From Bacteroidetes bacterium CG2_30_33_31 (GTDB lineage: Bacteria; Bacteroidota; Bacteroidia; Bacteroidales; UBA1556), in NCBI GenBank assembly GCA_001872625.1, contig MNXP01000021.1:2052-66051 (forward strand): a stretch of DNA of 64,000 nt. Direction: 5' to 3'. The notes beneath the pieces are model-generated. The model did no database searches, was not told where the DNA came from, and saw only the letters and a program-made list of their open reading frames with translations. Below, in pieces: positions 9,980-37,681 of the stretch (positions are counted from its first letter, which is position 1; the number at the start of each line of letters is the position of its first letter). Both the position numbers and the translations under genes were made by a program.

Positions 9980-11083
9980 TTAAAGATGAATTTTTGCATA
10001 ATTTGGATTATGAATGTAGGATGTGTCTGTAAGGCACAAAAGAAATGCTTTTAAATCGGCTTTCTGCTGAGGATTTAGTGCTGCACCATGACCGTAAGGA
10101 GGTCTAACTTTATGCATGAGTGGATGCGCATATTCAGAATATACCAAGCCTTCGCTGTAAAAATTTATTACTTCGTCCAAAGTTTTGAATCTGCCATCGT
10201 GCATATATGGTCCAGTCAATTCTACATTTCTTAATGTTGGAGCTTTATATGCCCCAATATCATTGTGGTTTCCAGTAACAGAATACCTGTCTCCAATTCC
10301 ATTAAAAGAGCTGTCCTTTGCATTATTGTAAAAAAGGTTAGTAGTCATAAGTGGATTTGATGGTTGCCCATGACAATGAAAGCAATCTGCACCACTTTCG
10401 GTAGTAAAAAGAACCATACCGTTTCTTTCAGAGTTAGTAAAATTATATTCTCCTCTTAGTACTTTATCCAATTTGGAATCGCTCGAAACCATTGAACGTA
10501 CAAATTGGCCTATAGCTTTAGCAATCAACTCTTTGCTGATGACTTTTGTTCCAAAAGCGGCTTCAAACATAGCAGGATATTCTGGTACAGCCGACAAGGC
10601 AGCCACTACTTTTTCCCATGTAGAAGCGAATTCACTTTGAAGAGTTATGGCTCCATAAATATCTTCTTCAATTGATGATGCACCACCATTCCAGGCAAAA
10701 GTTCCAGGATTCCATGCAAGATTGATGTGAGGTAGCATTACATTATCTGTTTCTATTCCCATAACTCCAATTCCTTTTCCAGTGCCATTTTCAAAGGAAT
10801 TAATTTGCTTATGGCAAGATGAACAGCTGAGGCCTTTGCCTTCATCTGCTCTACCTGAAAGGCGGTCATCATAATACAAATAATGGCCAAGTTTTACGCC
10901 TTCAACTGTCAAAGGATTGTTGGCAGGGATATTTACATTTGTTGGAAAACCTTTTGGAATCACAAAATTATAAGGTGTTGGTGCTTTAATAGTTGTTACT
11001 GGCGGATCTTTCTTGCATGAATAAAATATATTTGTAGCAATTAAGAGTAACAAAAACACTTTTTTATGCGAAATGCTTTTCAT
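9980..11083 (-). CDS. mbnH: Di-heme cytochrome c peroxidase/MauG family lipoprotein (MbnH-like)
   Basis: CSSCH and CFHCH, NPLT..GV.LG..L.YD.RLS, APTLRNVELTGPYMHDGRF. Confidence 0.85.
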   Translation of the reverse strand: MKSISHKKVFLLLLIATNIFYSCKKDPPVTTIKAPTPYNFVIPKGFPTNVNIPANNPLTVEGVKLGHYLYYDDRLSGRADEGKGLSCSSCHKQINSFENGTGKGIGVMGIETDNVMLPHINLAWNPGTFAWNGGASSIEEDIYGAITLQSEFASTWEKVVAALSAVPEYPAMFEAAFGTKVISKELIAKAIGQFVRSMVSSDSKLDKVLRGEYNFTNSERNGMVLFTTESGADCFHCHGQPSNPLMTTNLFYNNAKDSSFNGIGDRYSVTGNHNDIGAYKAPTLRNVELTGPYMHDGRFKTLDEVINFYSEGLVYSEYAHPLMHKVRPPYGHGAALNPQQKADLKAFLLCLTDTSYIHNPNYAKIHL

Positions 11084-11389
11084 AGATATTTATTTGAATG
11101 GTTGTTTAAATATGGATTGCGTTTTAGACACCAGAATCATATTTAAAGTTGCTTTTTGAAAATTCAATAAAATTGGTTTGTTTATATGCTAATATTAGAT
11201 GCAAGAATAATTTAATTTAACTATTGAAGAGATCTCTCAAATATAATTTATAAAAATATATTAATTTAAAGTATTAATATACAATATTATAATGTAAAAA
11301 TAAAAATAAATTCTAAATAATTTATTTTATTATACAACTTATTAAATCATTTTTTAGTCTTTGGGAATATCAATTAAAACCAGAAATTC

Positions 11390-23846: not shown

Positions 23847-26630
23847 TTAATAGTGCCCGTTTAATAGGGAATAAATAATTAAAATAACTAATGCAATTCC
23901 AGTAAACAAGAAAATGTATCCAAATGTTCTAATTAGTTTCATCCAAGAAGCAGAAAATTCTTTCTTTACCGTAACTTTATCCAATTTTCCAGCTTTTTCT
24001 AATTCGTCATATTCTTTTGGGCGGTCTTTTTTATATTCTTCTATTGGCACATGTCCTGTAAAAATAACTGTATCCATTGGAAAAGACTCAGGGCGTAGAT
24101 GTGTGTTAAAGAAATGAATTGTAAAAATAAATCCAACGGCAAGCAAAGCTTCATCACTGTGAATTATTTGAGCCACATTTATTACCCAACCTGATAGAAA
24201 CTTGGTAAAAAATTCAGGCTGCCATAAGATTAATCCCGATAAACCAATAACTGCAACTCCCCAAAATACAGCCATGTAATCGAATTTTTCCCAATAAGTC
24301 CATCGCCCGTAATATGGTCGAGGGCCTTTCCCTAAAAACCATTTAACAGTTGCAACAAAGTCTTTAATATCTTGTTTATTAAACATTAATGAATTTTTAC
24401 CGAAGATAAATGCCATAGGTTTAATTTTTTCTTTAACCATTGTTTTGATAAGCGAAGCCACATGGAAAATAAAATATCCGAATGTTATAACGGCTGCAAA
24501 ACGATGGATATTACCAGCAATACTAACTCCTCCAACTATTTTTGCTAAATTATATGCCCATTCCATGTGAGCAAATTTTAACATCATACCAGTTAATGCC
24601 AAAAGTATAAAACTTAATATTACAAATATGTGAGTGATGCGTTGGCTCTTTTTAAATCTACGGAAATATATTGCTTCGCCTTTTGGCATTGGGTGTTTTT
24701 TCTTTTTTCGCGCTTCCATAATCGATCGTGGTATCCATAAAAGTGTATGTAAGCCAAAGAATCCAAATACACCAAGTAATAATGATGTCATTGCCCAAAA
24801 TGTATAATAAAGAACTTTGTTGTCATTGTGTGTAGCATGAGTCAAATATCCTGCAAATTCAACTGTTGCACCTTCATGGCATTTTTTACACGTCTTTACA
24901 ATATTTTTTTGCCCTACACTCGATTCAAGATTAGAAATCTTTAATATTTTATGAGCGCCATGACAATCGGAGCATCGGGCAGCTTTTAAATATCCTAAGG
25001 TATAAGCTTTTCCATGGTATGTTTCCATATAAGTCTCCGATAATTTTTTATGGCAGCTTCCACATTGAAGAGTGATTTGAGTAAGAAATTTATCTTTATC
25101 AATTTCTGTAATTGTATGTGCTGTATGACAATTTGCACAAGTTGGAAATATTTTACCTTTACTGTTATTTTTTATTGAATGATCGCTATTCATGTAATCA
25201 TCATAAATGCTTTTATGACATTTTGCACAGGTAGCAGGAACATTTTTTGGATTTACAGTTGAATTTTTATCCGATTCTTTTAATATGTTGTGTGATGTAT
25301 GGCAATCAGTACAAATAGCACTCGAAAGCAATCCTTTATCTTTTAAACCTTTGCCATGTACACTTGATTTGTAATCGCTAAAAGCATTTATTTCTTTTAA
25401 ATGTGTTTTAATTGTCGCTTTTCCGTTTTTTTGATGACATTTGCCGCACATATCAGGAATTAATGCTCTGTACGTTGGTGATGTGTCGTCATATCTTGTT
25501 TTAATTTTGTGTGTTCCATGGCAATCGGTACAATAAGGAGCATTAGATTTTTTTGCAAAATATGCCTTTCCATGATCGCTGTTAATATACACATTTGAAA
25601 CTTGTTCGTGACAATTTGAACAATCAACTTTTTTGACTGTTGCACATGGTCGTACTTTATTGTTTGATATGGTAACGTCGGAATGACATTTTGTACATCC
25701 AATACTTTTATGTACAGAATTTTGAATATCCGATTTGTCAATTTTTAAAGATATTTTTTTGCCCCCTTTGGTGGTTTTAAAGGTATTATTTCCTTCGTGA
25801 CATTTTAAACAAATTTGGTTCGAAACTGTTTCCTCAATTTTCGTAATTTTTACAATATGTGATGGATGGCAATCTGAACATGCTGGAACAGAGCCTGCCT
25901 TCTTTTCCCAAAGTTCTCGCTTAATTACTTTCGTGTGTACTTTCTCTATTCGTGCATGACATTTCATGCAAGTTTTTGCAATATTTTTGCTATTTATCGA
26001 GGAATTTGGACTTGAATGAGGTAATATTAAATGATTTTCGTGGCAATCGTTACATGTTGCTGTAACAATAAGTCCACTTTTATACAAGCCTTTACCATGA
26101 ATACTTTCACTATAATGTTTTAAAATATTACTTTGAGGAATGTTATATAATCTGGCAATTGGCGAACCTTCTTTATGGCATTTCCCGCATAATATCGGAA
26201 TATTCATTTTATAAGTTCGAGATAGTGGGTTTGTCCTGCTTAAAATATCATGATTACCATGGCACTCTTTACAGCTAGGTGCATAAGGTGCATTTAATTT
26301 CAAGGCCTGTCCGTGAATGCCTTTTAAAAATTGAAATTGTGAATTTTTATGGCAACTACCGCAATCTACAAGTTTTAAATTTTCGGGATGAGGAAATTCT
26401 TTTACTGCTGCATCTTTATGGCATGAGGTACAAAGTACTTTCTTATGTACCGACTGAGAAATCTTATTATTTACATATAATGAAACAACTTTACCATGAC
26501 TTGTTTTTGACAAGGTCTCATCACTATGGCACATAAAGCAGTCATCATTCGACTGCGAAAACAAGTTTGATGGGTGAAAGGGAAATCCTACTGCCAACAA
26601 AAATAAAAATATTCTAAACTTTTTTAACAT
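23847..26630 (-). CDS. 19-heme c-type cytochrome fused to a C-terminal cytochrome b domain (CbcL-like quinol oxidoreductase)
   Basis: Signal peptide, 19 CxxCH counted by eye, then TM domain with RITH, IHR, RWTYWEKFDYMAVFWG, IIHSDEA, IHFFNTH. Confidence 0.88.
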   Translation of the reverse strand: MLKKFRIFLFLLAVGFPFHPSNLFSQSNDDCFMCHSDETLSKTSHGKVVSLYVNNKISQSVHKKVLCTSCHKDAAVKEFPHPENLKLVDCGSCHKNSQFQFLKGIHGQALKLNAPYAPSCKECHGNHDILSRTNPLSRTYKMNIPILCGKCHKEGSPIARLYNIPQSNILKHYSESIHGKGLYKSGLIVTATCNDCHENHLILPHSSPNSSINSKNIAKTCMKCHARIEKVHTKVIKRELWEKKAGSVPACSDCHPSHIVKITKIEETVSNQICLKCHEGNNTFKTTKGGKKISLKIDKSDIQNSVHKSIGCTKCHSDVTISNNKVRPCATVKKVDCSNCHEQVSNVYINSDHGKAYFAKKSNAPYCTDCHGTHKIKTRYDDTSPTYRALIPDMCGKCHQKNGKATIKTHLKEINAFSDYKSSVHGKGLKDKGLLSSAICTDCHTSHNILKESDKNSTVNPKNVPATCAKCHKSIYDDYMNSDHSIKNNSKGKIFPTCANCHTAHTITEIDKDKFLTQITLQCGSCHKKLSETYMETYHGKAYTLGYLKAARCSDCHGAHKILKISNLESSVGQKNIVKTCKKCHEGATVEFAGYLTHATHNDNKVLYYTFWAMTSLLLGVFGFFGLHTLLWIPRSIMEARKKKKHPMPKGEAIYFRRFKKSQRITHIFVILSFILLALTGMMLKFAHMEWAYNLAKIVGGVSIAGNIHRFAAVITFGYFIFHVASLIKTMVKEKIKPMAFIFGKNSLMFNKQDIKDFVATVKWFLGKGPRPYYGRWTYWEKFDYMAVFWGVAVIGLSGLILWQPEFFTKFLSGWVINVAQIIHSDEALLAVGFIFTIHFFNTHLRPESFPMDTVIFTGHVPIEEYKKDRPKEYDELEKAGKLDKVTVKKEFSASWMKLIRTFGYIFLFTGIALVILIIYSLLNGHY

Positions 26631-27417
26631 AATTTTATTTTATTTTATATTTTTTTTATAATAACTGCAAAGCAAAAGCCAATTAAAGTTTCTAAAATAA
26701 AAATGATTTTGTAGTAATTTTATTAATATTTTTCAGATACAAAATAGTACCCTTTAAAATTTATGCTGAAAATAGAATTTTTATATAAAACCTGATTTTC
26801 AACTATTACTCAAAACCTAAATTTTTCCAGTAAAAGTTATTCGCAATTAACTAACAAATAATCAAAATGTTACATTCAAATAAATTTAGCCTTTTGGACT
26901 TATTAAGTTTTAATAAAAAGTTGACGAGCCCATTATTTTTGCTTGCTTTTAAAATTTCTACCGATATTATAAATTAATTAGTCCCCTCAATTGAATAGAT
27001 TCAAAAGCTGTTGTGTTAACCAAATTATTGAGTAAACTCATGACATTGTCAAATTTATTAGTTTTGCTGATATGCAGCCAATATTCAAAGAACTTAGTAC
27101 TTTTTATAGAAGTAATTTTTAAAATTTTAATTTGTTTTTACCTTTACCATTATGAAGTTTGATATCTAATAAATCATTTGATAGAACATTTTTCCTAAAT
27201 AGAAGCATATAAATTATAATATAATAATTCATTTCCGGCTAATTTTACAGTTGAAGACTATTCAAATTGAGCTTCATTATGCCACCAATTATTCCTAATT
27301 TTTTAATTTCATATTATTAAAATTTAATTATCTACTTATTTCTATTTTAATAGAGTTTCTTTGGTAGCTTTAAAATTCTGCACAAATTAATTTAGGAACA
27401 TGATCCTACAAGATAAA

Positions 27418-27448
27418 AGGATAGGGGTATATTATATACCCCTATCCT
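27418..27448 (-). terminator. Intrinsic terminator downstream of the EB_dh-like lipoprotein
   Basis: Perfect 14-bp stem AGGATAGGGGTATA-TTA-TATACCCCTATCCT. Confidence 0.8.
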
Positions 27449-27466
27449 AAAATGAAATTATTTTAT

Positions 27467-28690
27467 TTATTGAATAAATTTCATATAATAATTTGGTGAA
27501 ACTCTGTGTTCGTAACCATGACGCGAATTATCAAATTGTGCAACATTAAAAAGGTATTCTTTAAGGAAATCTGTGTAATTGATGTCATCATCATGTCCTG
27601 TATTCAGTTTTCTTCCAATTTCTGCTTTCCATGTACCATTACTCCAAGTAGCTCCGAAAGTAAGATCAGCTCTGCTGCCAGTTGGTACGACATGAATTCG
27701 CTCACAAACAATTGCGTTTAGTGCAGCATATTTAGGCCAGTATAAAGCTGCATCAGCATCGCTTACACCTGTTGTTGCATCTCCTACGCATTCACCACCA
27801 TCTATTTCAGCTTTTGTAATAAACATAGCATCAGCGAAATCAGTTGGATTTTTTTCCATCCATTTTGGACGAGATTTATCAGCAATACGGTTGTGTGAAG
27901 CTGCGGCGGTTCCAGCATCGCCATAACGACCACCATCTTCACCATTAGTTCCTGACCACGGGCCAACATAAGTATCGTCAACATATCCAACCATAGAAAA
28001 TGTGCCAGCAGTTACTTCATGAGACGCTGGATCAACTGTTAAACCTGAACCCGTAGCAGAAGTGACGGCACCTGCACGTGCAGCTTTACTATGCCATAAA
28101 TCGGCACGACCTGCTGATAACCAAGCATCATCAACTATAGCATCTCCGTTTGCATGTGGATGAGGATCTGATTCTTGTGGCCAATACATGTGGCATTTAG
28201 CCATACATCCTTTTGTATTATATGGATCGCCTGTAGTGGCACCCATTGGCCAATAGAAAGAAATTCGATCTTCTGACTGAACTGTGTTCGGTTTTGCCCA
28301 AGAACCAGAAGCAAAGGACCAGGATCCATTTCTAGTAAAACTTGCTGTTGGATCAGACCATTCTGATAAAATATAAATGTCTGTAGCTGTATAAACTGCT
28401 CTTAATTTAACAGTTATAGCGCTATTATAAGCATGGCATCCTGCGCAGTTATTAATTTTTGATGGGTCATTTGGTGGATTGCCTGTCTCACCTATTGCTA
28501 CTGTCAAGATTGGAGCATTCGCCCATATACCATCGACAACTCCATCCACAGTTGGTGCCGTAGATGCTTTAATAGCATTTAACTTGGTTAAATCGTATGA
28601 AGGTGGCGTCACAGGGGGGACGTCCTTTTTACAGCTTACTGTAAATGTTAAAATTGCTAATGCAATTAAAATAAAATTAAAATTTTTCAT
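27467..28690 (-). CDS. Lipoprotein with ethylbenzene-dehydrogenase-like (EB_dh/DOMON) heme domain plus CxxCH and CxxxCH motifs
   Basis: VSC lipobox, PTVDG..D..W, W.DPT, EDR, DLWH.KA.R, W..E..RKL.TG..DD, CAGCH and CMAKCH. Confidence 0.7.
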   Translation of the reverse strand: MKNFNFILIALAILTFTVSCKKDVPPVTPPSYDLTKLNAIKASTAPTVDGVVDGIWANAPILTVAIGETGNPPNDPSKINNCAGCHAYNSAITVKLRAVYTATDIYILSEWSDPTASFTRNGSWSFASGSWAKPNTVQSEDRISFYWPMGATTGDPYNTKGCMAKCHMYWPQESDPHPHANGDAIVDDAWLSAGRADLWHSKAARAGAVTSATGSGLTVDPASHEVTAGTFSMVGYVDDTYVGPWSGTNGEDGGRYGDAGTAAASHNRIADKSRPKWMEKNPTDFADAMFITKAEIDGGECVGDATTGVSDADAALYWPKYAALNAIVCERIHVVPTGSRADLTFGATWSNGTWKAEIGRKLNTGHDDDINYTDFLKEYLFNVAQFDNSRHGYEHRVSPNYYMKFIQ

Positions 28691-28850: not shown

Positions 28851-31800
28851 TTAAAATCTGTCTGAAAATACCTTAGACTTATAATATTTAATGCCTGCTG
28901 AAATTATCAGAATAAAGATAGAGATAACGATGATTTTTGAGTACAAGGGGATTGCAAAAGCTTCACCAGCGCCATAAGAATGCATTCCTGATAGGAAGTA
29001 ATTTACTCCGAAGAAAGTCATTAAAATACTTCCAAAGCCTAAAACAGCTCCTGTACTAACTACAAATGAGGATTTGAAGCCTGGAATATGTCTTAAATGA
29101 CCAATGAAAGTATAAACTAAAATGCTTACCAATGCCCATGTTTCTTTGGGATCCCAACCCCAATAACGACCCCAAGATTCATTGGCCCAAACAGCTCCCA
29201 AAAATGTTCCGATAGTTAAAAGGTATAAACCAATTATCTGCGCCATTTCAATAATTGAGGATAGCTCTTTTATTGTTGGGAGCAGCTTTTCTGTGTTTCT
29301 TTCGTTGGTGGAAAGTAATAATATATGAATTAGCAAGCCCATTAAAGCTATTAAAGCGAAAAAGCCATAGCTTGAAGTTATTACAGCTACATGTATAATT
29401 AGCCAATAACTTTTTAATACTGGCACCAAATTAGTAATTTCTGGATCCATCCAACTTAAACCAGATATCAATATTAGTATGGCTGCAAGAATTGCAGTAA
29501 GTGCCAAGCTGATTGTGGATCTTTTGGCGAATAAAATTCCAGCCAATACTGTTGCCCAAGCTATAAAAAGTGTTGTCTCATAGCCATTGCTCCATGGTGC
29601 ATGCCCTGAAATATACCATCTTAAACCTAAAATTGCTGTTTGGAGTATGAATAGTAGAACAATCAAACTCATTGCACTATTTATTATCCACTTTATTTTC
29701 AGCTTGTTATTAAAAAGTTTTACAAACAAAGAAATGAGAAGAACTAATCCAAATACAAGATATAGTTTTGAAGCGTATTTAAAGAAATTTACTTTGTTGT
29801 AAAATACCTCCGCATCAACTTTTGCTGCTGGTGGCAGCTTATTTCCGCCAAATTTTTTCTGATATGCGAAAATTTTATCTAATGCAATATCAGCATTTTT
29901 CCAGTCACCAGATTGTATAGCTGATTTCACACTGCCGTAATACTGGCCATATAAATCTATTATTAATGCTTTTTGTTCTTTGTTTCCATCCTGATTCATT
30001 TCTGTTGCTGCAATCCATTTTCCAGTGCTATCACCAGGTAAAGGGAAAAAATTAAATAAACTTCCAGTAGATAACATTAAACTCAAATTTACTTTTTCGT
30101 CAAGTTTTAGTATTTCTTTATCATATTTGGTTCTAAGGTCTGCTTCTTTTTGATATATCTGATCTACTTCAGTTTTAATTAAATAGAGATCATAACTGCC
30201 TGGGGGCAATATTTGATTTATAGAAACTCTGTCGGAATTAAAATTGTATTTCTTTATAATTTCACTATTGGAAATTTTGATAGTAGGAACGTTTTCCCAC
30301 AGTTCTTGATTCATCATCATTGATAGAAAAAGCTCTGTTGAGGTATAACCATCAATAGAATTTTCTCGCATTATCTTCCTGTTAATTTCTGAGGCAAAAG
30401 TACTTATTGGTTTTATCCTCCCTATCGGGTCAGCGATTAGCAAATGACCAAATCTTTCTGCATGTTTGTGGTTTATATTGTTTGCTGGTGGATTTTGTAT
30501 AGGACTATTTGGTTGAGCTTGGCTGCTAAAGGCGGTAAATGTGCCAAGTAAAAATATTACTGCTATTTTGCTGTTTCTGTGCAAAAGTTCTCTGAAATGA
30601 CTTTTTTTGGAAAATAAGGCTAAGAACATTCCAACGACCATTAAAGAATATCCTAAATAAGTTACAATGGTTCCTATTGGATCGTAATTAACCGATAGAA
30701 TTGTTCCGTTTTCATCTTCATCATAGGATGACTGAAAAAACCTGTATCCTTTGTAATTCAAGATGTTGTTCATAAAAATACTAAATTCTTTTATCTCCTT
30801 GCCAGATTCATCAACAAGAGTGATATTGCTTTTAAAAGATGATGGGCTCATGGAATTAACGTATCTTTCAATTATAAAATCATCGAGCTTTAATGCAAAA
30901 GGCAGCTTAATAATTTCTGATCCGTAGGATATTTTAAAAGAGGCATCCGAGAAATTAACTATTTCTTCATCACCAGCCAAATTTTCCGCACCGAAAACGT
31001 ATTGTTCCTTTTTTTCTTCTCCATAGGAAATATCTAATTTTAGTGCATTCAATGGGTAATTTCCCGAATGCTCAGTCATCGAAACAACTTTTATTATTGC
31101 CGATGGATAATAATTTTTAATGGCGAAGCTATTATATGCTACTTGGTATAAAATATTATTAAGTGTTTTATGAATTGAATCAGGTGCAAGTTTTTGATGT
31201 TCCATGTTAATCATATCCACCTGATAAATCATTTCTTTGCTTTTTAAATATAGGCTATCATCTTTTTCTATGAAAATAATATCGGCATTTGGATTATCAC
31301 TAAAGGAATATGTAATATTTCCAAAAACGTAATCCTCGCCTTTATTTAAAAAAATATTTTTAAATTGAAATGAAGAATCTGAAATAGAAAGTGCGATAGT
31401 TTTCTTGCCTTCGGGTGAATCTTGTGCCATTTTAGCTGCATTCAGAATAAAATCTGATTGTTTAATTTGCAAAGTTTTGCTGCCTATATTGGTCGAAAAT
31501 GCTTCCATGGCTTTTATTCCTAAGCTGCTTTTTATTGCTTGCGAATAAATAGTTGAATCTGATTTGTTAACTGTTAGAGAAGTTTTTGCCGTGGTAATAA
31601 TATTTGAAGATTCGCCTTCTCTTATGTGCATAAATCCCTCATAACTAAAATATCTGGTAATACCTGCGCCAATAATTATTACGACGAATGAAAGATGAAA
31701 TAATATCAACGACCATTTTTTGTTTGCTAATGATTTATACTTTACCAAACTACCTAATAAATTTGCGCAAAGTAGAAAAAGCAATATTTCGAACCAACGG

Positions 31801-31940
31801 GCATCGTACACTAAGTTTCGAGCAGCATCTACACCTGTATTGTTCTCTACAAATGTGGCATATCCGATGGCTATGGCAAAAATTATAAGCAATATTGCTG
31901 AAAATGCCATCGAAAAAAAAACTGAAAATAATTTCTTCAT
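28851..31940 (-). CDS. ccsA: Fused System II cytochrome c maturase CcsBA (ResB-ResC)
   Basis: FHLSF, YRFFQSSYD, WLIIHV, GAVWANESWGRYWGWDPKETW, GMHSY. Confidence 0.95.
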   Translation of the reverse strand: MKKLFSVFFSMAFSAILLIIFAIAIGYATFVENNTGVDAARNLVYDARWFEILLFLLCANLLGSLVKYKSLANKKWSLILFHLSFVVIIIGAGITRYFSYEGFMHIREGESSNIITTAKTSLTVNKSDSTIYSQAIKSSLGIKAMEAFSTNIGSKTLQIKQSDFILNAAKMAQDSPEGKKTIALSISDSSFQFKNIFLNKGEDYVFGNITYSFSDNPNADIIFIEKDDSLYLKSKEMIYQVDMINMEHQKLAPDSIHKTLNNILYQVAYNSFAIKNYYPSAIIKVVSMTEHSGNYPLNALKLDISYGEEKKEQYVFGAENLAGDEEIVNFSDASFKISYGSEIIKLPFALKLDDFIIERYVNSMSPSSFKSNITLVDESGKEIKEFSIFMNNILNYKGYRFFQSSYDEDENGTILSVNYDPIGTIVTYLGYSLMVVGMFLALFSKKSHFRELLHRNSKIAVIFLLGTFTAFSSQAQPNSPIQNPPANNINHKHAERFGHLLIADPIGRIKPISTFASEINRKIMRENSIDGYTSTELFLSMMMNQELWENVPTIKISNSEIIKKYNFNSDRVSINQILPPGSYDLYLIKTEVDQIYQKEADLRTKYDKEILKLDEKVNLSLMLSTGSLFNFFPLPGDSTGKWIAATEMNQDGNKEQKALIIDLYGQYYGSVKSAIQSGDWKNADIALDKIFAYQKKFGGNKLPPAAKVDAEVFYNKVNFFKYASKLYLVFGLVLLISLFVKLFNNKLKIKWIINSAMSLIVLLFILQTAILGLRWYISGHAPWSNGYETTLFIAWATVLAGILFAKRSTISLALTAILAAILILISGLSWMDPEITNLVPVLKSYWLIIHVAVITSSYGFFALIALMGLLIHILLLSTNERNTEKLLPTIKELSSIIEMAQIIGLYLLTIGTFLGAVWANESWGRYWGWDPKETWALVSILVYTFIGHLRHIPGFKSSFVVSTGAVLGFGSILMTFFGVNYFLSGMHSYGAGEAFAIPLYSKIIVISIFILIISAGIKYYKSKVFSDRF

Positions 31941-32167: not shown

Positions 32168-32788
32168 CTAATGATTATCTTCATGCCAGCCAGTGATAAT
32201 TGACTTAAAATTTTTAAACGGCTTTTTCCCAATTGTACAAAAATAAATATGCACAAATAGAAAAATCGAAACAATAAAACCACCAATTATATGCAGCATA
32301 TCTGTAATAAATATTCCGCTGGTTTTTTGTAATTGATTTATTACTATCTCTGGAAACAATAATCCGAAGCCTGAAATTATTAATATTGGGAGCACTAAAT
32401 ACATTATTACCACATAGGAAAATTGCTGTAGAGGGTTAAATTTATTTGACTCATTTATGGGAAAAGGAGGGGCTTCACCTTTGAAAATTCCAATTGAATA
32501 ATAATATGATTGTTTCATCAGCTTGCTGATATATCCTTTAATTCTAAAAATATAATGCTTGCTGTTTCCCGTGATAATATTTCCAACAATAAAAATAATA
32601 TAATTAAATGCTAATAGAATTCCGCAGATATTATGAATAGCAACAGCCAAATCAAACCTCATAAATGGATATAAAGGATCTGAATATTGTAAGCTTATCC
32701 CTGTAATTATTAAAAATATTATAGCTAATGCATTTATTAAATGCCAAATACGTATTAATAATGGATATAAATATATTTTTGTGGACAT
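32168..32788 (-). CDS. Di-heme cytochrome b membrane subunit (Ni_hydr_CYTB / PhsC / CbcB-like)
   Basis: RIWH, IHN, KFNPLQ, MLH...FVHIY, SIITGW, about four TM helices. Confidence 0.88.
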   Translation of the reverse strand: MSTKIYLYPLLIRIWHLINALAIIFLIITGISLQYSDPLYPFMRFDLAVAIHNICGILLAFNYIIFIVGNIITGNSKHYIFRIKGYISKLMKQSYYYSIGIFKGEAPPFPINESNKFNPLQQFSYVVIMYLVLPILIISGFGLLFPEIVINQLQKTSGIFITDMLHIIGGFIVSIFLFVHIYFCTIGKKPFKNFKSIITGWHEDNH

Positions 32789-32792
32789 GGAG

Positions 32793-33734
32793 TTATTTTT
32801 TAAGTATTATGCGTATAAAGGCATGAATAAAAATTATTAAAAGCACTAATGAGAAAATACTAATACTTATAGAATTCAAATAGAAGTTCCTATTAGCACC
32901 AATTACAAAAGAATTCTTTAGCAAAACCCCATTAAAAAATCCGAATTTATTTCTATTTTCTTTTATGTCATGCTTATATAGCGATGACATTAATAATGAA
33001 TTATCCGAATGGCATTTCACACAAAGTTTTACCGCCTTTTCTTTTCCCAAAATGCGATGTGGTACTTTCAAGCTATCATTTTGCTGAGCATGACATTCCA
33101 AACATCTAACCTTTTTAAAATGTAATTCACGGTTTGGTAGCCAACTATGAGATTTTTCATCAATGGATGCAGTGCTATCTGACAGCAAATAGAATTTATT
33201 TTCTGTGTAATTATGACAATTTAAGCACATGTGATTACTGTAATCTACAATTTTGTTAATATCAGTTTTGTTACGGGCATTCAACTCGTAATAATGCTGT
33301 TTATGGCATCTCTCACAATTAAAATCTTCGCCCATCAATTTACCATGAATGCTCTTTTTAACTTCAACTTCAATCTCTTCAAAATGAAATTTTGCAAAAG
33401 TTTCGTCACTACCATGGCAGTCGAGGCAAGTATTTTTCGCCTCTAATTTTAATTCAGCTTTGTGTGGATAAATTTCATATTCAGTTGCATGACAATCAGT
33501 ACATTGAAAACTTTTATGTACACCTTTCTTGTAAAGAGTTTTATTTATAATAAAATATGGATTCATCCTATGATGAACTTCTTTGTCAATTACCCTATTA
33601 TAGAATTTATAATAATCATTTCCATGACACTTCAAACACTTGTTATTATTTGGTATCACAGTTTGAGTGAAAGAAGTAACAACTAAAAATAAGGCTAAAA
33701 TACTTAAGCTTAAGCTTTTGTTAATTATACACAT
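32793..33734 (-). CDS. Heptaheme cytochrome c with C-terminal membrane anchor (CbcA-like)
   Basis: Seven CxxCH (CLKCH, CTDCH, CLDCH, CERCH, CLNCH, CLECH, CVKCH), VIGANR, C-terminal TM helix containing His. Confidence 0.85.
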   Translation of the reverse strand: MCIINKSLSLSILALFLVVTSFTQTVIPNNNKCLKCHGNDYYKFYNRVIDKEVHHRMNPYFIINKTLYKKGVHKSFQCTDCHATEYEIYPHKAELKLEAKNTCLDCHGSDETFAKFHFEEIEVEVKKSIHGKLMGEDFNCERCHKQHYYELNARNKTDINKIVDYSNHMCLNCHNYTENKFYLLSDSTASIDEKSHSWLPNRELHFKKVRCLECHAQQNDSLKVPHRILGKEKAVKLCVKCHSDNSLLMSSLYKHDIKENRNKFGFFNGVLLKNSFVIGANRNFYLNSISISIFSLVLLIIFIHAFIRIILKK

Positions 33735-33796: not shown

Positions 33797-34213
33797 CTAC
33801 TTTTTCAAAGTTCTCATATAATTTATTAAAGCCCAGCGGTCATTCTCGCTTAAAATTTTCTTTTCAAAATTAGGCATTTCGGTACGACCAACAATTGCTT
33901 CGTAATAAATTTCACCATCTGATTGTCCTTGAAATTTTGCAGATGAAAAATCACCGCAATTTGTTTTAAGTGTTTTAGATCTTGGGCTATCTCCTTTACC
34001 CAAAGCTCCGTGGCAAGTTTTGCAATATTTGCTGTAAAGTGATTTTCCAGTATCGACATTTTTACCTGGAATTGGATTTTTCATACTCTTATATTTTGCT
34101 GGAATTGTCCAGGGCGCTGCTGCTTTCTGTTGTGGTACCGAAAAAGCAAAAACAATGATTATTGCTAATGTAGAAACAGATGCAAGAACTAATTTACTAA
34201 ATTGTGTTTTCAT
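33797..34213 (-). CDS. Periplasmic monoheme cytochrome c (class I, His/Met)
   Basis: Signal sequence, NP...GK.LY..YCKTCHG, GR.EMP.F, RW.LINY.R.L. Confidence 0.9.
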   Translation of the reverse strand: MKTQFSKLVLASVSTLAIIIVFAFSVPQQKAAAPWTIPAKYKSMKNPIPGKNVDTGKSLYSKYCKTCHGALGKGDSPRSKTLKTNCGDFSSAKFQGQSDGEIYYEAIVGRTEMPNFEKKILSENDRWALINYMRTLKK

Positions 34214-34243: not shown

Positions 34244-35164
34244 TTAAAAGCTCCAAATTCGAGTTATTACAAAACCAAATGCCATACCACCTTTAGTGAA
34301 ATCATTTACATTATGCATAATAATTTCTTGTGGCAAAATGCCAGCAGATGTTCCAATAAATATTTGGAATGCATGAGCGCTCGTAGCTATTTCCAATCCA
34401 AATGCTAAATTTGGTTTAGGAGGATTTGTAAATGGTATATTTTCTGACATAGATTTTAAATTCAATGGCATATCGTAAGTAAAAATAAATGATCCTTGAG
34501 GAGAAAATTTCATTTTGCCATTAAAATGTATCGCAATTTTATCATGTTCCATCAATGAATCAACAGCGTTGAAGTGTGTAAAACTCGCAGCGGCTTGTAG
34601 GCTTAGCCATTCATTAAATTTTCTACTAATAATGAGTTGTGAGAAGTATGCCACCCTATCCCCAAATGAATAGGTTTTTCCAAATGCTGTTTTGTTTCTC
34701 GAATCAAAAGCCATATCGCCAAATAGTGATACTGCTATTGGAATAGTATTTTTCCTAGTTTGCTCAAGAATTGTCCACTTAATATTAAAGTCGTTATACA
34801 TATTCAACTTTGAAATACCCCAACCTAATTGTAGGTTTTTCAATATCACATAGTTGATGCCCATTCTGATATTAGCTCCTGGTGCATAAATACCCCATAA
34901 ATCCCCAATACCGTTGGTGGACATAGAGCCAAAACGATGCTGAATTACATACTCCAAAGTCTTAGATGATGGAATATAGGTCGTTTGTGCATCAATTAAA
35001 TAGCCGCTGGAGAATGTTTCGCTAACGGGCTCATCTATAATAGATTCTTCTTCTATAGCTGCTGCTGTATCTACTACAACAACATTTGTATCTGTTTCAA
35101 TTTCCTGAGCTGATATTCTTGTAGAAAATATCAACAAAAAAATGGAGATTAATATTTTATTCAT
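34244..35164 (-). CDS. Outer-membrane beta-barrel protein (DUF5777-like)
   Basis: Signal peptide, QHRFG, EIATSAHAFQIF, C-terminal GFVITRIWSF. Confidence 0.75.
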   Translation of the reverse strand: MNKILISIFLLIFSTRISAQEIETDTNVVVVDTAAAIEEESIIDEPVSETFSSGYLIDAQTTYIPSSKTLEYVIQHRFGSMSTNGIGDLWGIYAPGANIRMGINYVILKNLQLGWGISKLNMYNDFNIKWTILEQTRKNTIPIAVSLFGDMAFDSRNKTAFGKTYSFGDRVAYFSQLIISRKFNEWLSLQAAASFTHFNAVDSLMEHDKIAIHFNGKMKFSPQGSFIFTYDMPLNLKSMSENIPFTNPPKPNLAFGLEIATSAHAFQIFIGTSAGILPQEIIMHNVNDFTKGGMAFGFVITRIWSF

Positions 35165-35174
35165 TTTCAGTGTA

Positions 35175-35549
35175 TTAATTGTTTTTTGCTCCTTGAGTTA
35201 TCCACATTAAAATGATTGCAGCTTGATTATCAGTGTATTTTTTCCAACTGTGTGTAGATGTAGAGGCTAAAGGATGTTGATAAAGTTTGCTTTGAGCAGG
35301 GTCAGTGAGATTCAATAAACCCATAGAAGTTATTTCGCTGTATGCTGCGCTTGCAGATAAGTCTGGCCTTGTGCTTCCAGATTTGTGGCAACTAATACAA
35401 GTGGCATCAGAAAATATAGGCACCACTTGAGTGGCAAACTTTACTGTGTCTGTGGGATTTATAATAACCCCACTTTCTTTTATATTATATTTATAAGTGC
35501 AACTTCCAAAGAATAGCATTACAAATATTATCAAAAAAATTTTTTTCAT
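35175..35549 (-). CDS. Monoheme cytochrome c lipoprotein
   Basis: FGSC lipobox, V.F...V.PIF...CISCH, WITQGAKNN. Confidence 0.8.
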   Translation of the reverse strand: MKKIFLIIFVMLFFGSCTYKYNIKESGVIINPTDTVKFATQVVPIFSDATCISCHKSGSTRPDLSASAAYSEITSMGLLNLTDPAQSKLYQHPLASTSTHSWKKYTDNQAAIILMWITQGAKNN

Positions 35550-35696: not shown

Positions 35697-36725
35697 TTAT
35701 TTCTTAGCTGCTGCTATAGAATTTTCAAGAAGCTTTTTAGCATAGTTGAAATTATGTACACCTTTACTTTTATCTTCCATAACAAATTGATAATTGTATA
35801 TAATTCCAGCATTGTCATTAGTATAAGTGCCAGTTACAACATTACCAGAAGCAGTCATATATCCTTTGGTTACTAAAATTGTTTTTAGGCTATCCAATAA
35901 ATTTTGAGTTGTAGCTTGAGTGGCAATAATTTTATTCTTCAAGGAAGTTGCATCTGCATGGCAAGAAGTGCATCCTGCTGTATTTACTGTACCAGATGTT
36001 CCATACCTCATGCCTAATTGATGACCACCAGCTTGATTACCATAAGCTTTAGCCATGTGACATTGAACGCATGAATTGCTAACCATGGTAGTATGAGATG
36101 AATTTATATAACCTGTTCCTAATTCATATCCACCAGTACCATTAAATAAGTTTCCCTGAGGGCCATGATGAGTTCCATAACGAAAGCTCGTAATTGTAAT
36201 AGTTGCAGACCCTTGAGATAAATCCCACATTGGATCAGGTTTTCTAATCTGATGACAATTAATACATAAATTAGCTTTTCCTTGATCGCTTGTAATTCCA
36301 TTTACTTTGAAAACTACAGGAGTTGTTGCTGTCAAAGCCCAATCATCTTGCGTGTAAGTTGTGTGAATTTTGTGGCATGTGTAGCAATTTTGAGGATTTG
36401 GATTGCTAATCACGCTTGCACATACTTCAGCTCCAGTTTTGAGAACTTCTAAAAAACCTTGGCTTGTATGACAAGGTGCACAATCAACGGCATTTCTTGC
36501 ATAATTTCCATTTACTGCATGCCCAGAAGCTGCCCATTGATTGCTTTTTTCGAAAATATTCTGTGAATTGTCGTGACATTTGATACAATCCACTGTCCCA
36601 TTAGTTCCATTGGTACCATTAGTACCGTTGATGCCTGCAGGACCTTGAGGTCCCTCTTTAGTGCAGGATGCTATTATTAGTGTACTTAGAACTAATAATG
36701 CTGTAATTTTTTGTAATGATTTCAC
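35697..36725 (-). CDS. Hexaheme c-type cytochrome lipoprotein with collagen-like Gly-X-Y linker
   Basis: GTG start, IIASC lipobox, GPQGPAGINGTNGTNGTNG, six CxxCH, C-terminal helical region with GVHN..YA..LL..S. Confidence 0.88.
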   Translation of the reverse strand: MKSLQKITALLVLSTLIIASCTKEGPQGPAGINGTNGTNGTNGTVDCIKCHDNSQNIFEKSNQWAASGHAVNGNYARNAVDCAPCHTSQGFLEVLKTGAEVCASVISNPNPQNCYTCHKIHTTYTQDDWALTATTPVVFKVNGITSDQGKANLCINCHQIRKPDPMWDLSQGSATITITSFRYGTHHGPQGNLFNGTGGYELGTGYINSSHTTMVSNSCVQCHMAKAYGNQAGGHQLGMRYGTSGTVNTAGCTSCHADATSLKNKIIATQATTQNLLDSLKTILVTKGYMTASGNVVTGTYTNDNAGIIYNYQFVMEDKSKGVHNFNYAKKLLENSIAAAKK

Positions 36726-36793: not shown

Positions 36794-36828
36794 ATGATAT
36801 AAATCAAAGCAAAATTGATATATATCAA
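36794..36828. promoter_or_regulatory. Tandem FNR/Crp boxes
   Basis: ATGAT-ATAA-ATCAA (36794-36807) and perfect TTGAT-ATAT-ATCAA (36815-36828), 21 bp apart. Confidence 0.8.
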
Positions 36829-36843
36829 CAATGTGAAAAAATG

Positions 36844-37545
36844 TTAATTATATTGACTTAACTTCTTGAGTTCATTTAAGTTATGTATTTCAAAATCATC
36901 TCCCTTAATTGAAATAATTTTATCTTCTTTATAGCTTTTCAGGATACGAATCATGCACTCTTTAGATAAGGCACAAAAATCTGCCAAGTCTTGTCTCTTT
37001 AATGTTGTAGTGAATTTATTACTCTTATATATAATTGTAGAAAGATAAATTATCATATCGGCAACTCTTGCATACATTGTCTTAGAGGTTAAATCGATGG
37101 TTCTATTTTTAGATTTAATGGCAAGTTGGTTTAATCTTTTTAATAAGGAAAGACTGAATTTAATGTTTGTTTCCAATACCTGTTTAAATGAATTTACTTC
37201 AAGTAAACATACCTTAATGTCTGTTATTGCTTGGAAGGATGAATGATGAATTTCATCTACATAAAGGCCTGTAATTCCAAAAATATCTCCTGGCTGACTT
37301 ATTCCAATAAGTAAGGTTTTGCCTTGGTGAGCTTCCGCAGTGATTTTTACAAACCCTTCTCTTAAGCAAGCTATATGTGTAATTGCAGTAGATTGTTTGA
37401 AAATAGTTTCACCTGCTTTAAACTCAACTTCGCGTCTATGATAAAAAAGTATTTCTTTATTTTCTTTAGATAAATCGTTATATAGCAATGGCTTAACGGG
37501 GCAGCAGCATTCATTGCAATTTTCGTATTGAGCACAGTCAAACAT
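36844..37545 (-). CDS. Crp/Fnr-family regulator with N-terminal Cys cluster
   Basis: MFDCAQYENCNECCC, cNMP-like domain with central VC, HTH RQDLADFCALSKECMIR. Start ATG at 37545. Confidence 0.9.
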   Translation of the reverse strand: MFDCAQYENCNECCCPVKPLLYNDLSKENKEILFYHRREVEFKAGETIFKQSTAITHIACLREGFVKITAEAHQGKTLLIGISQPGDIFGITGLYVDEIHHSSFQAITDIKVCLLEVNSFKQVLETNIKFSLSLLKRLNQLAIKSKNRTIDLTSKTMYARVADMIIYLSTIIYKSNKFTTTLKRQDLADFCALSKECMIRILKSYKEDKIISIKGDDFEIHNLNELKKLSQYN

Positions 37546-37681
37546 ATTATATAATTTTATCTTCCAGTTTATTATTGAGATTGCCAACAGACAAATAAAG
37601 CATTATTTTCCTAAATATGCAATATATTATTCAGATTCAAAAATACATTAATTTTTCTGTAGTCTAAAGAATTTTTTATTT

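Follow-up and report, generated by a model that had tools for sequence, protein, structure and literature searches.

The 64,000-nucleotide stretch of DNA analysed here (the window; part of contig MNXP01000021.1 of Bacteroidetes bacterium CG2_30_33_31, order Bacteroidales) encodes, at 23847..26630 on the minus strand, a 927-residue fusion of a 19-haem c-type cytochrome domain with a dihaem cytochrome b domain, assigned to the CbcL/MtrH/MtoC family from its open reading frame, motifs and Pfam/NCBIfam matches. The evidence as a whole is best explained, and with good confidence, by an inner-membrane quinol:cytochrome c oxidoreductase of this family whose haem chain has been lengthened by block duplication. 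Documented below are its motifs, the duplication, how the b domain folds, the conservation of ligands, the spread of the family and the synteny. The protein is typical of a 19-haem branch that is widespread and catalogued yet unstudied. As first stated, in a reading made from the DNA letters without database searches (the sequence-only reading), the finding is ordinary: it adds a further member to a catalogued family. The interest of the locus rests on a conserved histidine-to-cysteine swap within the haem domain and on a conserved gene cluster.

The 19-haem protein and its gene

The CxxCH motifs of the protein number exactly 19, as the sequence-only reading had counted, and all lie within residues 31–585; none of the variants CxxxCH, CxxxxCH or CxxCK was found in the protein. 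Of its 39 cysteines, 38 belong to these motifs, and the remaining one, Cys329, therefore lies outside them. The signal peptide, at about residues 1–25 (26556..26630, −), was read by eye from basic residues followed by a hydrophobic run, and the structural model has a helix at residues 2–18. Within the first 590 residues, Pfam reports cytochrome c7/c3, paired-CXXCH and MtrC-domain matches. The overall plan comprises 8 + 8 + 3 haems followed by six membrane helices, with the last c-haem some 20 residues ahead of the first helix.

The stored gene call for this protein (P0001) has 895 residues and 18 motifs; it thus starts late and lacks the signal peptide and the first haem cysteine (26535–26630, −). 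Homologues of 925–935 residues align from query residue 1 onward, which supports the longer, 927-residue start. Four further close homologues (895–898 residues) also have only 18 motifs, suggesting that they share the late start of P0001.

Duplication of an eight-haem block

Two aligned modules and a shorter tail make up the haem domain. Module A (haems 1–8, residues 28–267; 25830..26549, −) is the membrane-distal copy and aligns with module B (haems 9–16, residues 271–512; 25095..25820, −), which is orthologous to the single module of relatives with 11 haems. The tail (haems 17–19, residues 513–604; 24819..25094, −) is, from motifs and BLASTP, a partial third repeat beside the membrane. In BLASTP, modules A and B share 36% identity over 244 columns with 6 gaps (E 5e-49); whole-protein self-BLAST gives the identity match only, and it is the comparison of segment with segment that reveals the repeat. 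Because haem motifs alone could inflate an alignment score, a motif-preserving control was run: module B was randomised in 300 shuffles with every motif C, C and H held fixed, and aligned by the Smith-Waterman method. The real pair scores 434, against 108.7 ± 18.9 for the shuffled sequences (maximum 165; z = 17). Excluding motif letters, 63 of 214 positions (29%) are identical.

The sequence-only reading had claimed an internal tandem duplication visible as modules at about 25860–26540 and 25210–25815 (residues 31–257 and 272–474). Both are real, and the six motif strings quoted for them occur in each copy; the significance of the alignment, together with the motif spacing and module tree described next, upholds the duplication. 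The bounds given were about right, save that the second module reaches further, to about 25095.

Haems 17–19 (residues 523–585) match haems 3–5 of a module (BLASTP E 1.9e-15 and 7.2e-15), hence the 8 + 8 + 3 plan. The 11-haem relatives align with query residues 270–923. Their motifs are spaced 37, 23, 30, 28, 45, 28, 30 and then, in the tail, 25, 30, 28; the spacing of the 19-haem proteins is this string with one further eight-haem block in front. Apart from the most distant two, all 19-haem rows keep the tail spacing, as do most rows with 11 haems. A maximum-likelihood tree (quick method) was made for 45 hand-picked modules, namely 14 A, 14 B and 17 single ones. In it, 12 of the 14 A modules share a single clade (SH-aLRT 96), and their B counterparts group with the single modules from the closest 11-haem relatives. 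P0203 and P0213, which are the most distant 19-haem proteins, have long branches and no firm placement. Spacing and tree together indicate that one old duplication accounts for the clade of the 927-residue protein. Judged from these sequences, module B with the tail corresponds to the 11-haem form. The 19-haem chain would have arisen from an 11-haem ancestor by duplication of its eight-haem block, the new or diverged copy being module A, at the distal tip; the event would be old and common to a clade that spans many phyla.

The membrane cytochrome b domain

A model of the whole protein was made with AlphaFold2 on a 105-row alignment (A1) and has a mean predicted local distance difference test score (pLDDT) of 87.2 and a predicted template modelling score (pTM) of 0.70. 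It predicts six long helices, at residues 605–642, 661–685, 702–733, 779–803, 815–843 and 894–924. The first (24705..24818, −) carries the nearly invariant His628, and the sixth forms the C-terminus (23859..23951, −). Between them lies an FdnI/HydC-like dihaem b core (residues 652–885; 23976..24677, −) with His667, His709, His824 and His839, identified by structure and phmmer alignment. That there is a cytochrome b domain, as the label ‘CbcL-like’ of the sequence-only reading implied, is borne out by the Pfam family Ni_hydr_CYTB (PF01292), which scores 36.2 bits at residues 658–839 against a cut-off of 30.1. The NCBIfam model for formate dehydrogenase gamma (TIGR01583) gives 46.8 bits, below its cut-off of 115.85; the domain is therefore a member of the Ni_hydr_CYTB family and not a formate dehydrogenase gamma subunit.

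Residues 652–885 superpose on FdnI, the cytochrome b556 subunit of Escherichia coli formate dehydrogenase-N (1kqf_C), with Z 15.1 and a root-mean-square deviation (rmsd) of 2.8 Å over 203 of 216 residues (VIA-align). FdnI is also the only Foldseek match of the 927-residue model below E 0.001 (E 2.6e-4, TM 0.78). The phmmer alignment (E 3.7e-4) pairs His667 with FdnI His18 and His709 with His57, and places His824 and His839 on the two histidines of the last FdnI helix. These four residues we take to be the haem ligands of FdnI. In alignment A1, His709 and the tail residue His598 are invariant, and His667, His824, His839, His628 and His844 are each present in at least 90% of the 105 rows. The two proteins share a four-helix dihaem core and four histidine positions; however, sequence similarity is weak, the query adds one helix on each side, and the electron partner is an iron-sulfur subunit in FdnI but a fused c-haem chain in the query. 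Searched by sequence against the Protein Data Bank (PDB), the whole protein has one weak match (28pb_A, E 1.1e-5), which is uninformative about the haem domain.

Shape of the haem domain

The 11-haem unit (residues 271–612) was modelled separately, with pLDDT 92.4 and pTM 0.86, and compared with 48,161 PDB representatives. All 16 best matches are multihaem cytochromes, and the rows below Z 3 are unrelated. On MtrA of the Shewanella Mtr complex (6r2q chain A), model positions 63–337 superpose on chain positions 62–328, about nine haems, with Z 8.5, rmsd 4.2 Å over 210 of 265 residues and 24% identity. MtrA, like the query, has a thin polypeptide on a haem chain, with about 30 residues per haem; the query differs in being anchored in the inner membrane, in having no outer-membrane barrel as a sheath and in carrying nearly twice the haems. 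Likeness to the DmsE/MtrA family is at fold level only, the NCBIfam decahaem model (TIGR03508) scoring 80.6 bits against a cut-off of 192.2. The match to MtrA argues for an elongated, non-globular 11-haem unit in the model and fixes no length; a wire that spans the periplasm would be a reasonable extension of it. The ten haems of MtrA extend over about 80 Å, and by rough estimate a chain of 19 haems, if straight, would reach about 160 Å.

Octahaem cores of the hydroxylamine oxidoreductase (HAO) type also superpose, at Z 7.3–8.7, while Pfam and NCBIfam give no family match of that type by sequence. Enzymes of this type have a catalytic five-coordinate haem; since a conserved distal ligand is available for each haem of the query, an open haem of that sort seems less likely here.

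Haem ligands and a conserved cysteine

Of the histidines outside the motifs, 20 are conserved in 90% or more of the 58 rows for 19-haem proteins; module A has nine of these, module B seven and the tail four. Their number would be enough for bis-histidine ligation; from the same tally, module B has seven histidines and Cys329 for its eight haems. Cys329 (in the sequence ‘RPC’; codon 25644..25646, −) is the sole non-motif cysteine of the haem domain and the candidate axial ligand of a His/Cys haem. It lies 15–18 residues past the first cysteine of motif 10, in a loop that is the least confident block of the 11-haem-unit model (block 51–60, pLDDT 72). Cysteine is found at this position in 63 of 64 19-haem orthologues, in 61 of them as the only extra cysteine; the lone orthologue without it comes from a Nitrospinota metagenome-assembled genome (MAG). 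At the paralogous site, module A has His81 in 58 of 58 rows, and the 11-haem relatives have P-H in 11 of 17 rows and cysteine in none. The simplest reading of these alignments is that a distal histidine changed to cysteine after the duplication, giving one candidate His/Cys haem. Among the papers listed by a literature search on cysteine-ligated haems, the phrase ‘his cys ligated’ did not occur.

Place in the CbcL/MtrH/MtoC family

Zhong & Shi (2018; PMC6295460), in the parts considered here, describe CbcL/MtrH/MtoC homologues from 15 phyla, five homologues being from Bacteroidetes, with 3–23 motifs, 416–1034 residues, mostly six helices and three conserved histidines. The 927-residue protein has the features of the family: a multi-CxxCH N-terminal domain behind a signal peptide, a C-terminal domain of about six helices related to HydC and FdnI, and conserved membrane-helix histidines as b-haem ligands. 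Its assignment to the family holds, and with it the earlier label ‘CbcL-like’. Supplementary Table S2 of the same survey lists, with 19 motifs each, the Marinilabiliales proteins PLX00698.1 (931 residues) and PLX02355.1 (932 residues), PKP08298.1 from Bacteroidetes and OGG45190.1 from Handelsmanbacteria. These resemble the query in length class (913–932 residues), in their six helices and in near-identical motif positions. Since PLX02355.1 bears the tag C0595_11120, which is that of an orthologue 64% identical to the 927-residue protein (P0111), the 19-haem architecture is already catalogued; the listed proteins are catalogued there only, and none is studied. The word ‘duplication’ has 0 occurrences in PMC6295460, and the extra cysteine and the synteny are absent from its abstract, its section 10 and the passages considered. 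A term search of a peat preprint (10.64898/2026.05.27.727921) and of the Caldithrix genome paper (PMC5317091) gave nothing on this protein in the text covered.

Geobacter sulfurreducens CbcL (GSU0274), an inner-membrane cytochrome required for low-potential acceptors, has nine bis-histidine haems and a midpoint potential of −194 mV and passes electrons to PpcA, according to the parts of a 2026 review (PMC13591261) seen here; the sequence-only reading had also given nine, in agreement with this source and the corresponding parts of PMC6295460. CbcL shares with the query a multihaem c domain in the periplasm that continues into a dihaem b domain of six helices similar to HydC and FdnI, and its bis-histidine ligation has a parallel in the sufficient count of conserved histidines in the query. 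The query differs in having 19 haems rather than nine, through one additional eight-haem module, in its number of modules and in the replacement of one distal histidine by Cys329. A further difference is the carrier, a Bacteroidia genome in which only four multihaem frames, and nothing like a PpcA pool, were seen.

Distribution of the 19-haem form

When 1.84 billion representatives were scanned in full with HMMER, 6102 relatives reached E 0.001 or better. Motifs were counted among 150 matches listed of these 6102, of which 101 have a near-complete b domain. Within the 101, counts peak at 11 (32 proteins) and 9 (18), while four proteins have 19 and one has 22; these figures are rough because many metagenome entries are fragments. 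Closer to the query, the best 120 matches in a collection of 5.8 billion proteins (825–949 residues, 63–100% identical) have 19 motifs in 109 cases, 18 in ten (five of which start late) and 16 in one. In a collection of species genomes, 599 stretches encode relatives, and the best 80, covering nearly the whole query, were examined. The plus-strand frame richest in motifs has exactly 19 in 64 of these 80 loci; the other 16 are mostly shorter than full length, some at the end of a locus, and three have 21 motifs. The haem-count distribution among homologues thus answers the suggestion of the sequence-only reading that the protein is a ‘giant’: as a mark of oddity the word fails, 19 motifs being the norm in a large multi-phylum clade and within the published range. 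A one-off expansion was likewise considered and rejected on these counts. Variants with 21 or 22 CxxCH motifs (loci L051, L065 and L067; protein P0124) occur in Zixiibacteriota and MAGs, so the haem domain has been further extended in some lineages.

Carriers among the 80 loci span at least a dozen phyla. On the Bacteroidota side they include Bacteroidales, Prolixibacteraceae, Draconibacterium, Maribellus sp. YY47 (L020), Mangrovibacterium lignilyticum BM_7 (L028) and Lentimicrobiaceae; others belong to Chlorobiota/Ignavibacteriales, Calditrichota, Latescibacterota, Aminicenantes, Eisenbacteria, Krumholzibacteriia, Zixiibacteriota, Acidobacteriota, Gemmatimonadota, Planctomycetota and Nitrospinota. 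Within the host order, 18 of 201 genomes, including this one, carry the 19-haem gene. Neither of two same-genus genomes (96–97% complete) has it; in both, the DUF5777 gene of the cluster described below was not found with this query, and a different, shorter CcsBA-like gene is present. With the gene patchy in the order and lacking in these two genomes, the cluster looks like accessory DNA, probably acquired by transfer. The whole genome (2.87 Mb) has four frames with at least three CxxCH motifs (19, 7, 6 and 6); half of their total of 38 motifs lie in the 927-residue protein.

Gene neighbourhood in the window

The neighbouring genes at higher coordinates all lie on the minus strand. Nearest is the gene for a 407-residue lipoprotein-like protein of the EB_dh type (ethylbenzene dehydrogenase gamma-type haem-binding) with one CxxCH (27467..28690), adjoining that for a 1029-residue fused ResB/CcsA (CcsBA) cytochrome c maturation protein (28851..31940). 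There follow a CbcB-like cytochrome b of 206 residues (32168..32788), whose best NCBIfam match, ‘thiosulfate reductase cytochrome B subunit’, scores 181.8 bits against a cut-off of 204; a CbcA-like seven-haem cytochrome of 313 residues with a C-terminal membrane helix (32793..33734); a monohaem cytochrome c of 138 residues (33797..34213); a DUF5777 β-barrel of 306 residues (34244..35164; Pfam E 1.4e-72), the candidate outer-membrane part; a monohaem lipoprotein-like protein of 124 residues (35175..35549); and a six-haem lipoprotein-like cytochrome of 342 residues with an MtrC domain II/IV-like match (35697..36725). A Crp/FNR-family regulator heads the cluster (36844..37587).

Between the regulator gene and the six-haem gene stands a perfect Crp/FNR-type palindrome, TTGATATATATCAA (36815..36828), the only zero-mismatch match of this type in the 64-kb window. 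Matches with at most one mismatch number 16 in the window, which is not above chance (10.1 ± 3.4); one such copy lies at 36794–36807, 21 bp from the palindrome, the intergenic gap being 118 bp.

On the 3′ side of the EB_dh gene there is a terminator-like hairpin of 14 pairs (27418..27448, −), and the spacer before the 19-haem gene (26631–27466) is 836 bp long, AT-rich and free of open reading frames. Hairpin and spacer suggest that the 19-haem gene forms its own transcription unit here. By blastx, neither this upstream spacer nor the 854 bp downstream of the gene matches any protein encoded beside it at the related loci, and thus no remnant of a gene is seen. A sigma-70 promoter scan returned 21 matches against 24.7 in shuffled sequence, below expectation, with a method ill-suited to Bacteroidota. 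Elsewhere in the window, an open frame at 9983–11089 (−; 369 residues, with an open reading frame of 367 residues at 9980–11083) has two CxxCH motifs.

Conservation of the cluster

Neighbours were counted in the best 80 of the 599 related loci. Twelve of these (L009, L011, L014–L017, L020–L023, L028 and L034) are collinear and tight, in the order six-haem, one-haem, DUF5777, seven-haem, cytochrome b, 19-haem gene; a Crp-family gene lies upstream in 11 of the 12, and CcsBA downstream, within the sequence covered at each locus, in eight. In the window described here, CcsBA and the EB_dh gene have moved between the cytochrome b gene and the 19-haem gene. Two other loci (L002 and L003) run from DUF5777 through a monohaem cytochrome to the 19-haem gene and lack the seven-haem/cytochrome b pair in this interval. 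Within 6 kb of the 19-haem gene, homologues of the seven-haem protein occur in 26 of 80 loci, of DUF5777 in 19 and of the cytochrome b in 18; the six-haem lipoprotein was found in 16 loci, and the one-haem lipoprotein and the Crp-family regulator in 13 each. CcsBA is near the 19-haem gene in 10 of 80, and EB_dh in one related locus only (L006). In G198 and G073, the two genomes of the order with the closest homologues, DUF5777 precedes the 19-haem gene by a few hundred bases.

Another frequent neighbour is a NapC/NirT-type cytochrome of 500 residues, ImcH-like by architecture, which has membrane helices at its N-terminus and one CxxxCH besides six CxxCH motifs. Its full-length homologue stands beside the 19-haem gene in 23 of 80 loci, mostly directly downstream (e.g., L020:8967–10469, +); in the genome of the query, it is alone on another contig (G000:C10:55255–56766, −).

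The pair at 32168–33734 can be likened, by description, to Geobacter CbcBA, in which a seven-haem protein with a C-terminal helix adjoins a ‘thiosulfate reductase-like’ cytochrome b. That label is the usual mislabel of CbcB according to the parts of Joshi et al. (2021; 10.1101/2021.04.15.440034) seen here, which also report cbcBA homologues in Prolixibacter, Marinilabiliales, Labilibaculum and Caldithrix. Unlike Geobacter CbcBA, the pair in this window and in the 12 loci belongs to one collinear cluster with the 19-haem gene, the DUF5777 barrel and the lipoprotein cytochromes, and the regulator is of the Crp family rather than BccR-like. Literature searches on DUF5777, and on Prolixibacteraceae with multiheme and extracellular electron transfer, found no paper. 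The histidine-to-cysteine swap, and likewise the conserved cluster with its DUF5777 barrel, lipoprotein cytochromes and CbcBA- and ImcH-like genes, goes beyond the parts of the published accounts considered here.

Proposed mode of action and alternatives

In the mechanism that we favour, the Sec signal peptide would send the N-terminal 580 residues to the periplasm, and the neighbouring CcsBA system would attach the 19 haems. Two b-haems would be bound in an FdnI-type four-helix core, by His667/His839 and His709/His824, and menaquinol would be oxidised at this domain. Leaving the b-haems, electrons would enter the chain at haem 19 and travel to haem 1; this chain, mostly bis-histidine and reaching away from the membrane, would hand them to the lipoprotein cytochromes and the DUF5777 barrel of the conserved cluster. 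The long chain probably replaces soluble periplasmic carriers in a genome with four multihaem frames. We infer the direction of electron flow, the partners and the length of the wire; for a possible role in quinol oxidation for low-potential extracellular acceptors, it is the gene context that speaks.

Several observations weigh against this picture. The sequence-only reading had proposed an extended wire, and the superposition on MtrA does argue against a globular fold; the extension itself is less secure. The 11-haem unit matches HAO-type octahaem proteins at Z 8.2–8.7, tied with MtrA; values near 8 are modest and can reflect common haem packing alone; and at the A/B junction pLDDT falls below 50 (residues 238–240 and 259–266). 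The barrel that sheathes MtrA in the Mtr complex is much larger than 306 residues, and a sheath-type conduit is thus doubtful with a DUF5777 barrel so far below it in size. Cys329, if it is a ligand, would place a very low-potential haem in the path, a poor fit to a simple downhill wire. In this window, CcsBA, EB_dh, the hairpin and the 836-bp spacer separate the 19-haem gene from the cluster, and no Crp/FNR-type box was found in that spacer. Family membership is drawn from architecture and a published list, and the same family includes MtoC of Fe(II) oxidisers (PMC6295460, in the parts considered), which bears on the direction of flow.

Reverse operation is the alternative to which this last point leads: electrons supplied from outside the cell by Fe(II), a cathode, a partner cell or reduced humics would pass through the 19 haems and the b-haems to menaquinone at the cytoplasmic side and build a proton motive force. 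The b core superposes on FdnI, which in formate dehydrogenase-N works in the quinone-reducing direction, and the survey in PMC6295460 found nothing that tells the oxidisers, with their MtoC, apart from the reducers. Yet we think reverse work unlikely: the carriers belong mostly to anaerobic heterotroph lineages, and the cluster holds CbcBA-like and, in 23 loci, full-length ImcH-like genes, whose Geobacter counterparts serve quinol oxidation (PMC13591261 and 10.1101/2021.04.15.440034, in the parts seen). The chain might instead store electrons as a capacitor, or act as a hub with several exits at the membrane surface, soluble or lipoprotein partners docking along it. The model leaves the link from one module to the other flexible or uncertain, packing of the HAO type matches as well as MtrA, and Geobacter CbcL and PpcA are described in PMC13591261, as far as considered, as sharing electrons as ‘dynamic redox reservoirs’. 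Such a store would, however, have few other cytochromes to serve in a genome with four frames of at least three motifs, and the conserved linkage with a barrel protein and lipoprotein cytochromes points away from it; this too is improbable in our view.

Cys329 invites a further explanation. His/Cys haems serve sulfur chemistry in TsdA, SoxA and DsrJ, and the haem at Cys329 could be a catalytic or substrate-binding one as in the thiosulfate dehydrogenase TsdA or in SoxXA, which would make the protein a quinol-linked sulfur-compound reductase or oxidase and not a pure wire. The lone extra cysteine in 63 of 64 orthologues, the histidine at the paralogous site and the low model confidence of the loop would all accord with this. 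We nevertheless consider it very unlikely: Pfam, NCBIfam and PDB searches gave no TsdA or SoxA match by sequence or fold, no sulfur-metabolism genes are seen in the cluster, the contact between Cys329 and a haem is a candidate only, and the ‘thiosulfate reductase cytochrome B’ label of the neighbour is below cut-off and, from the parts of the CbcBA paper cited above, a customary misnomer. A quinol-oxidising, block-extended CbcL-type enzyme stays the preferred explanation.

Implications

Although unstudied, 19-haem forms are standard in many anaerobic lineages outside the model metal reducers, among them Bacteroidota, Ignavibacteriales, Calditrichota, Acidobacteriota and Planctomycetota. In Bacteroidota, their genes travel with CbcBA- and ImcH-like genes, a small barrel and lipoprotein cytochromes, and together suggest a minimal candidate path by which electrons could pass from quinol to the cell surface in bacteria commonly regarded as fermenters. 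Cultured carriers exist in Maribellus sp. YY47 and Mangrovibacterium lignilyticum. A bolder proposal, which we put forward tentatively and regard as doubtful though possible, is that after the duplication Cys329 came to ligate, through its thiolate, a very low-potential haem in the middle of the wire, which may, as a redox gate or sensing point, control what flows from the quinol site to the distal module; with the lipoprotein cytochromes and the DUF5777 barrel inherited alongside it, the wire would then form a compact, horizontally mobile system for extracellular electron transfer, of a kind so far undescribed and without a soluble periplasmic cytochrome pool. The conserved swap of histidine for cysteine is a clean natural experiment on a thiolate haem within an electron wire.

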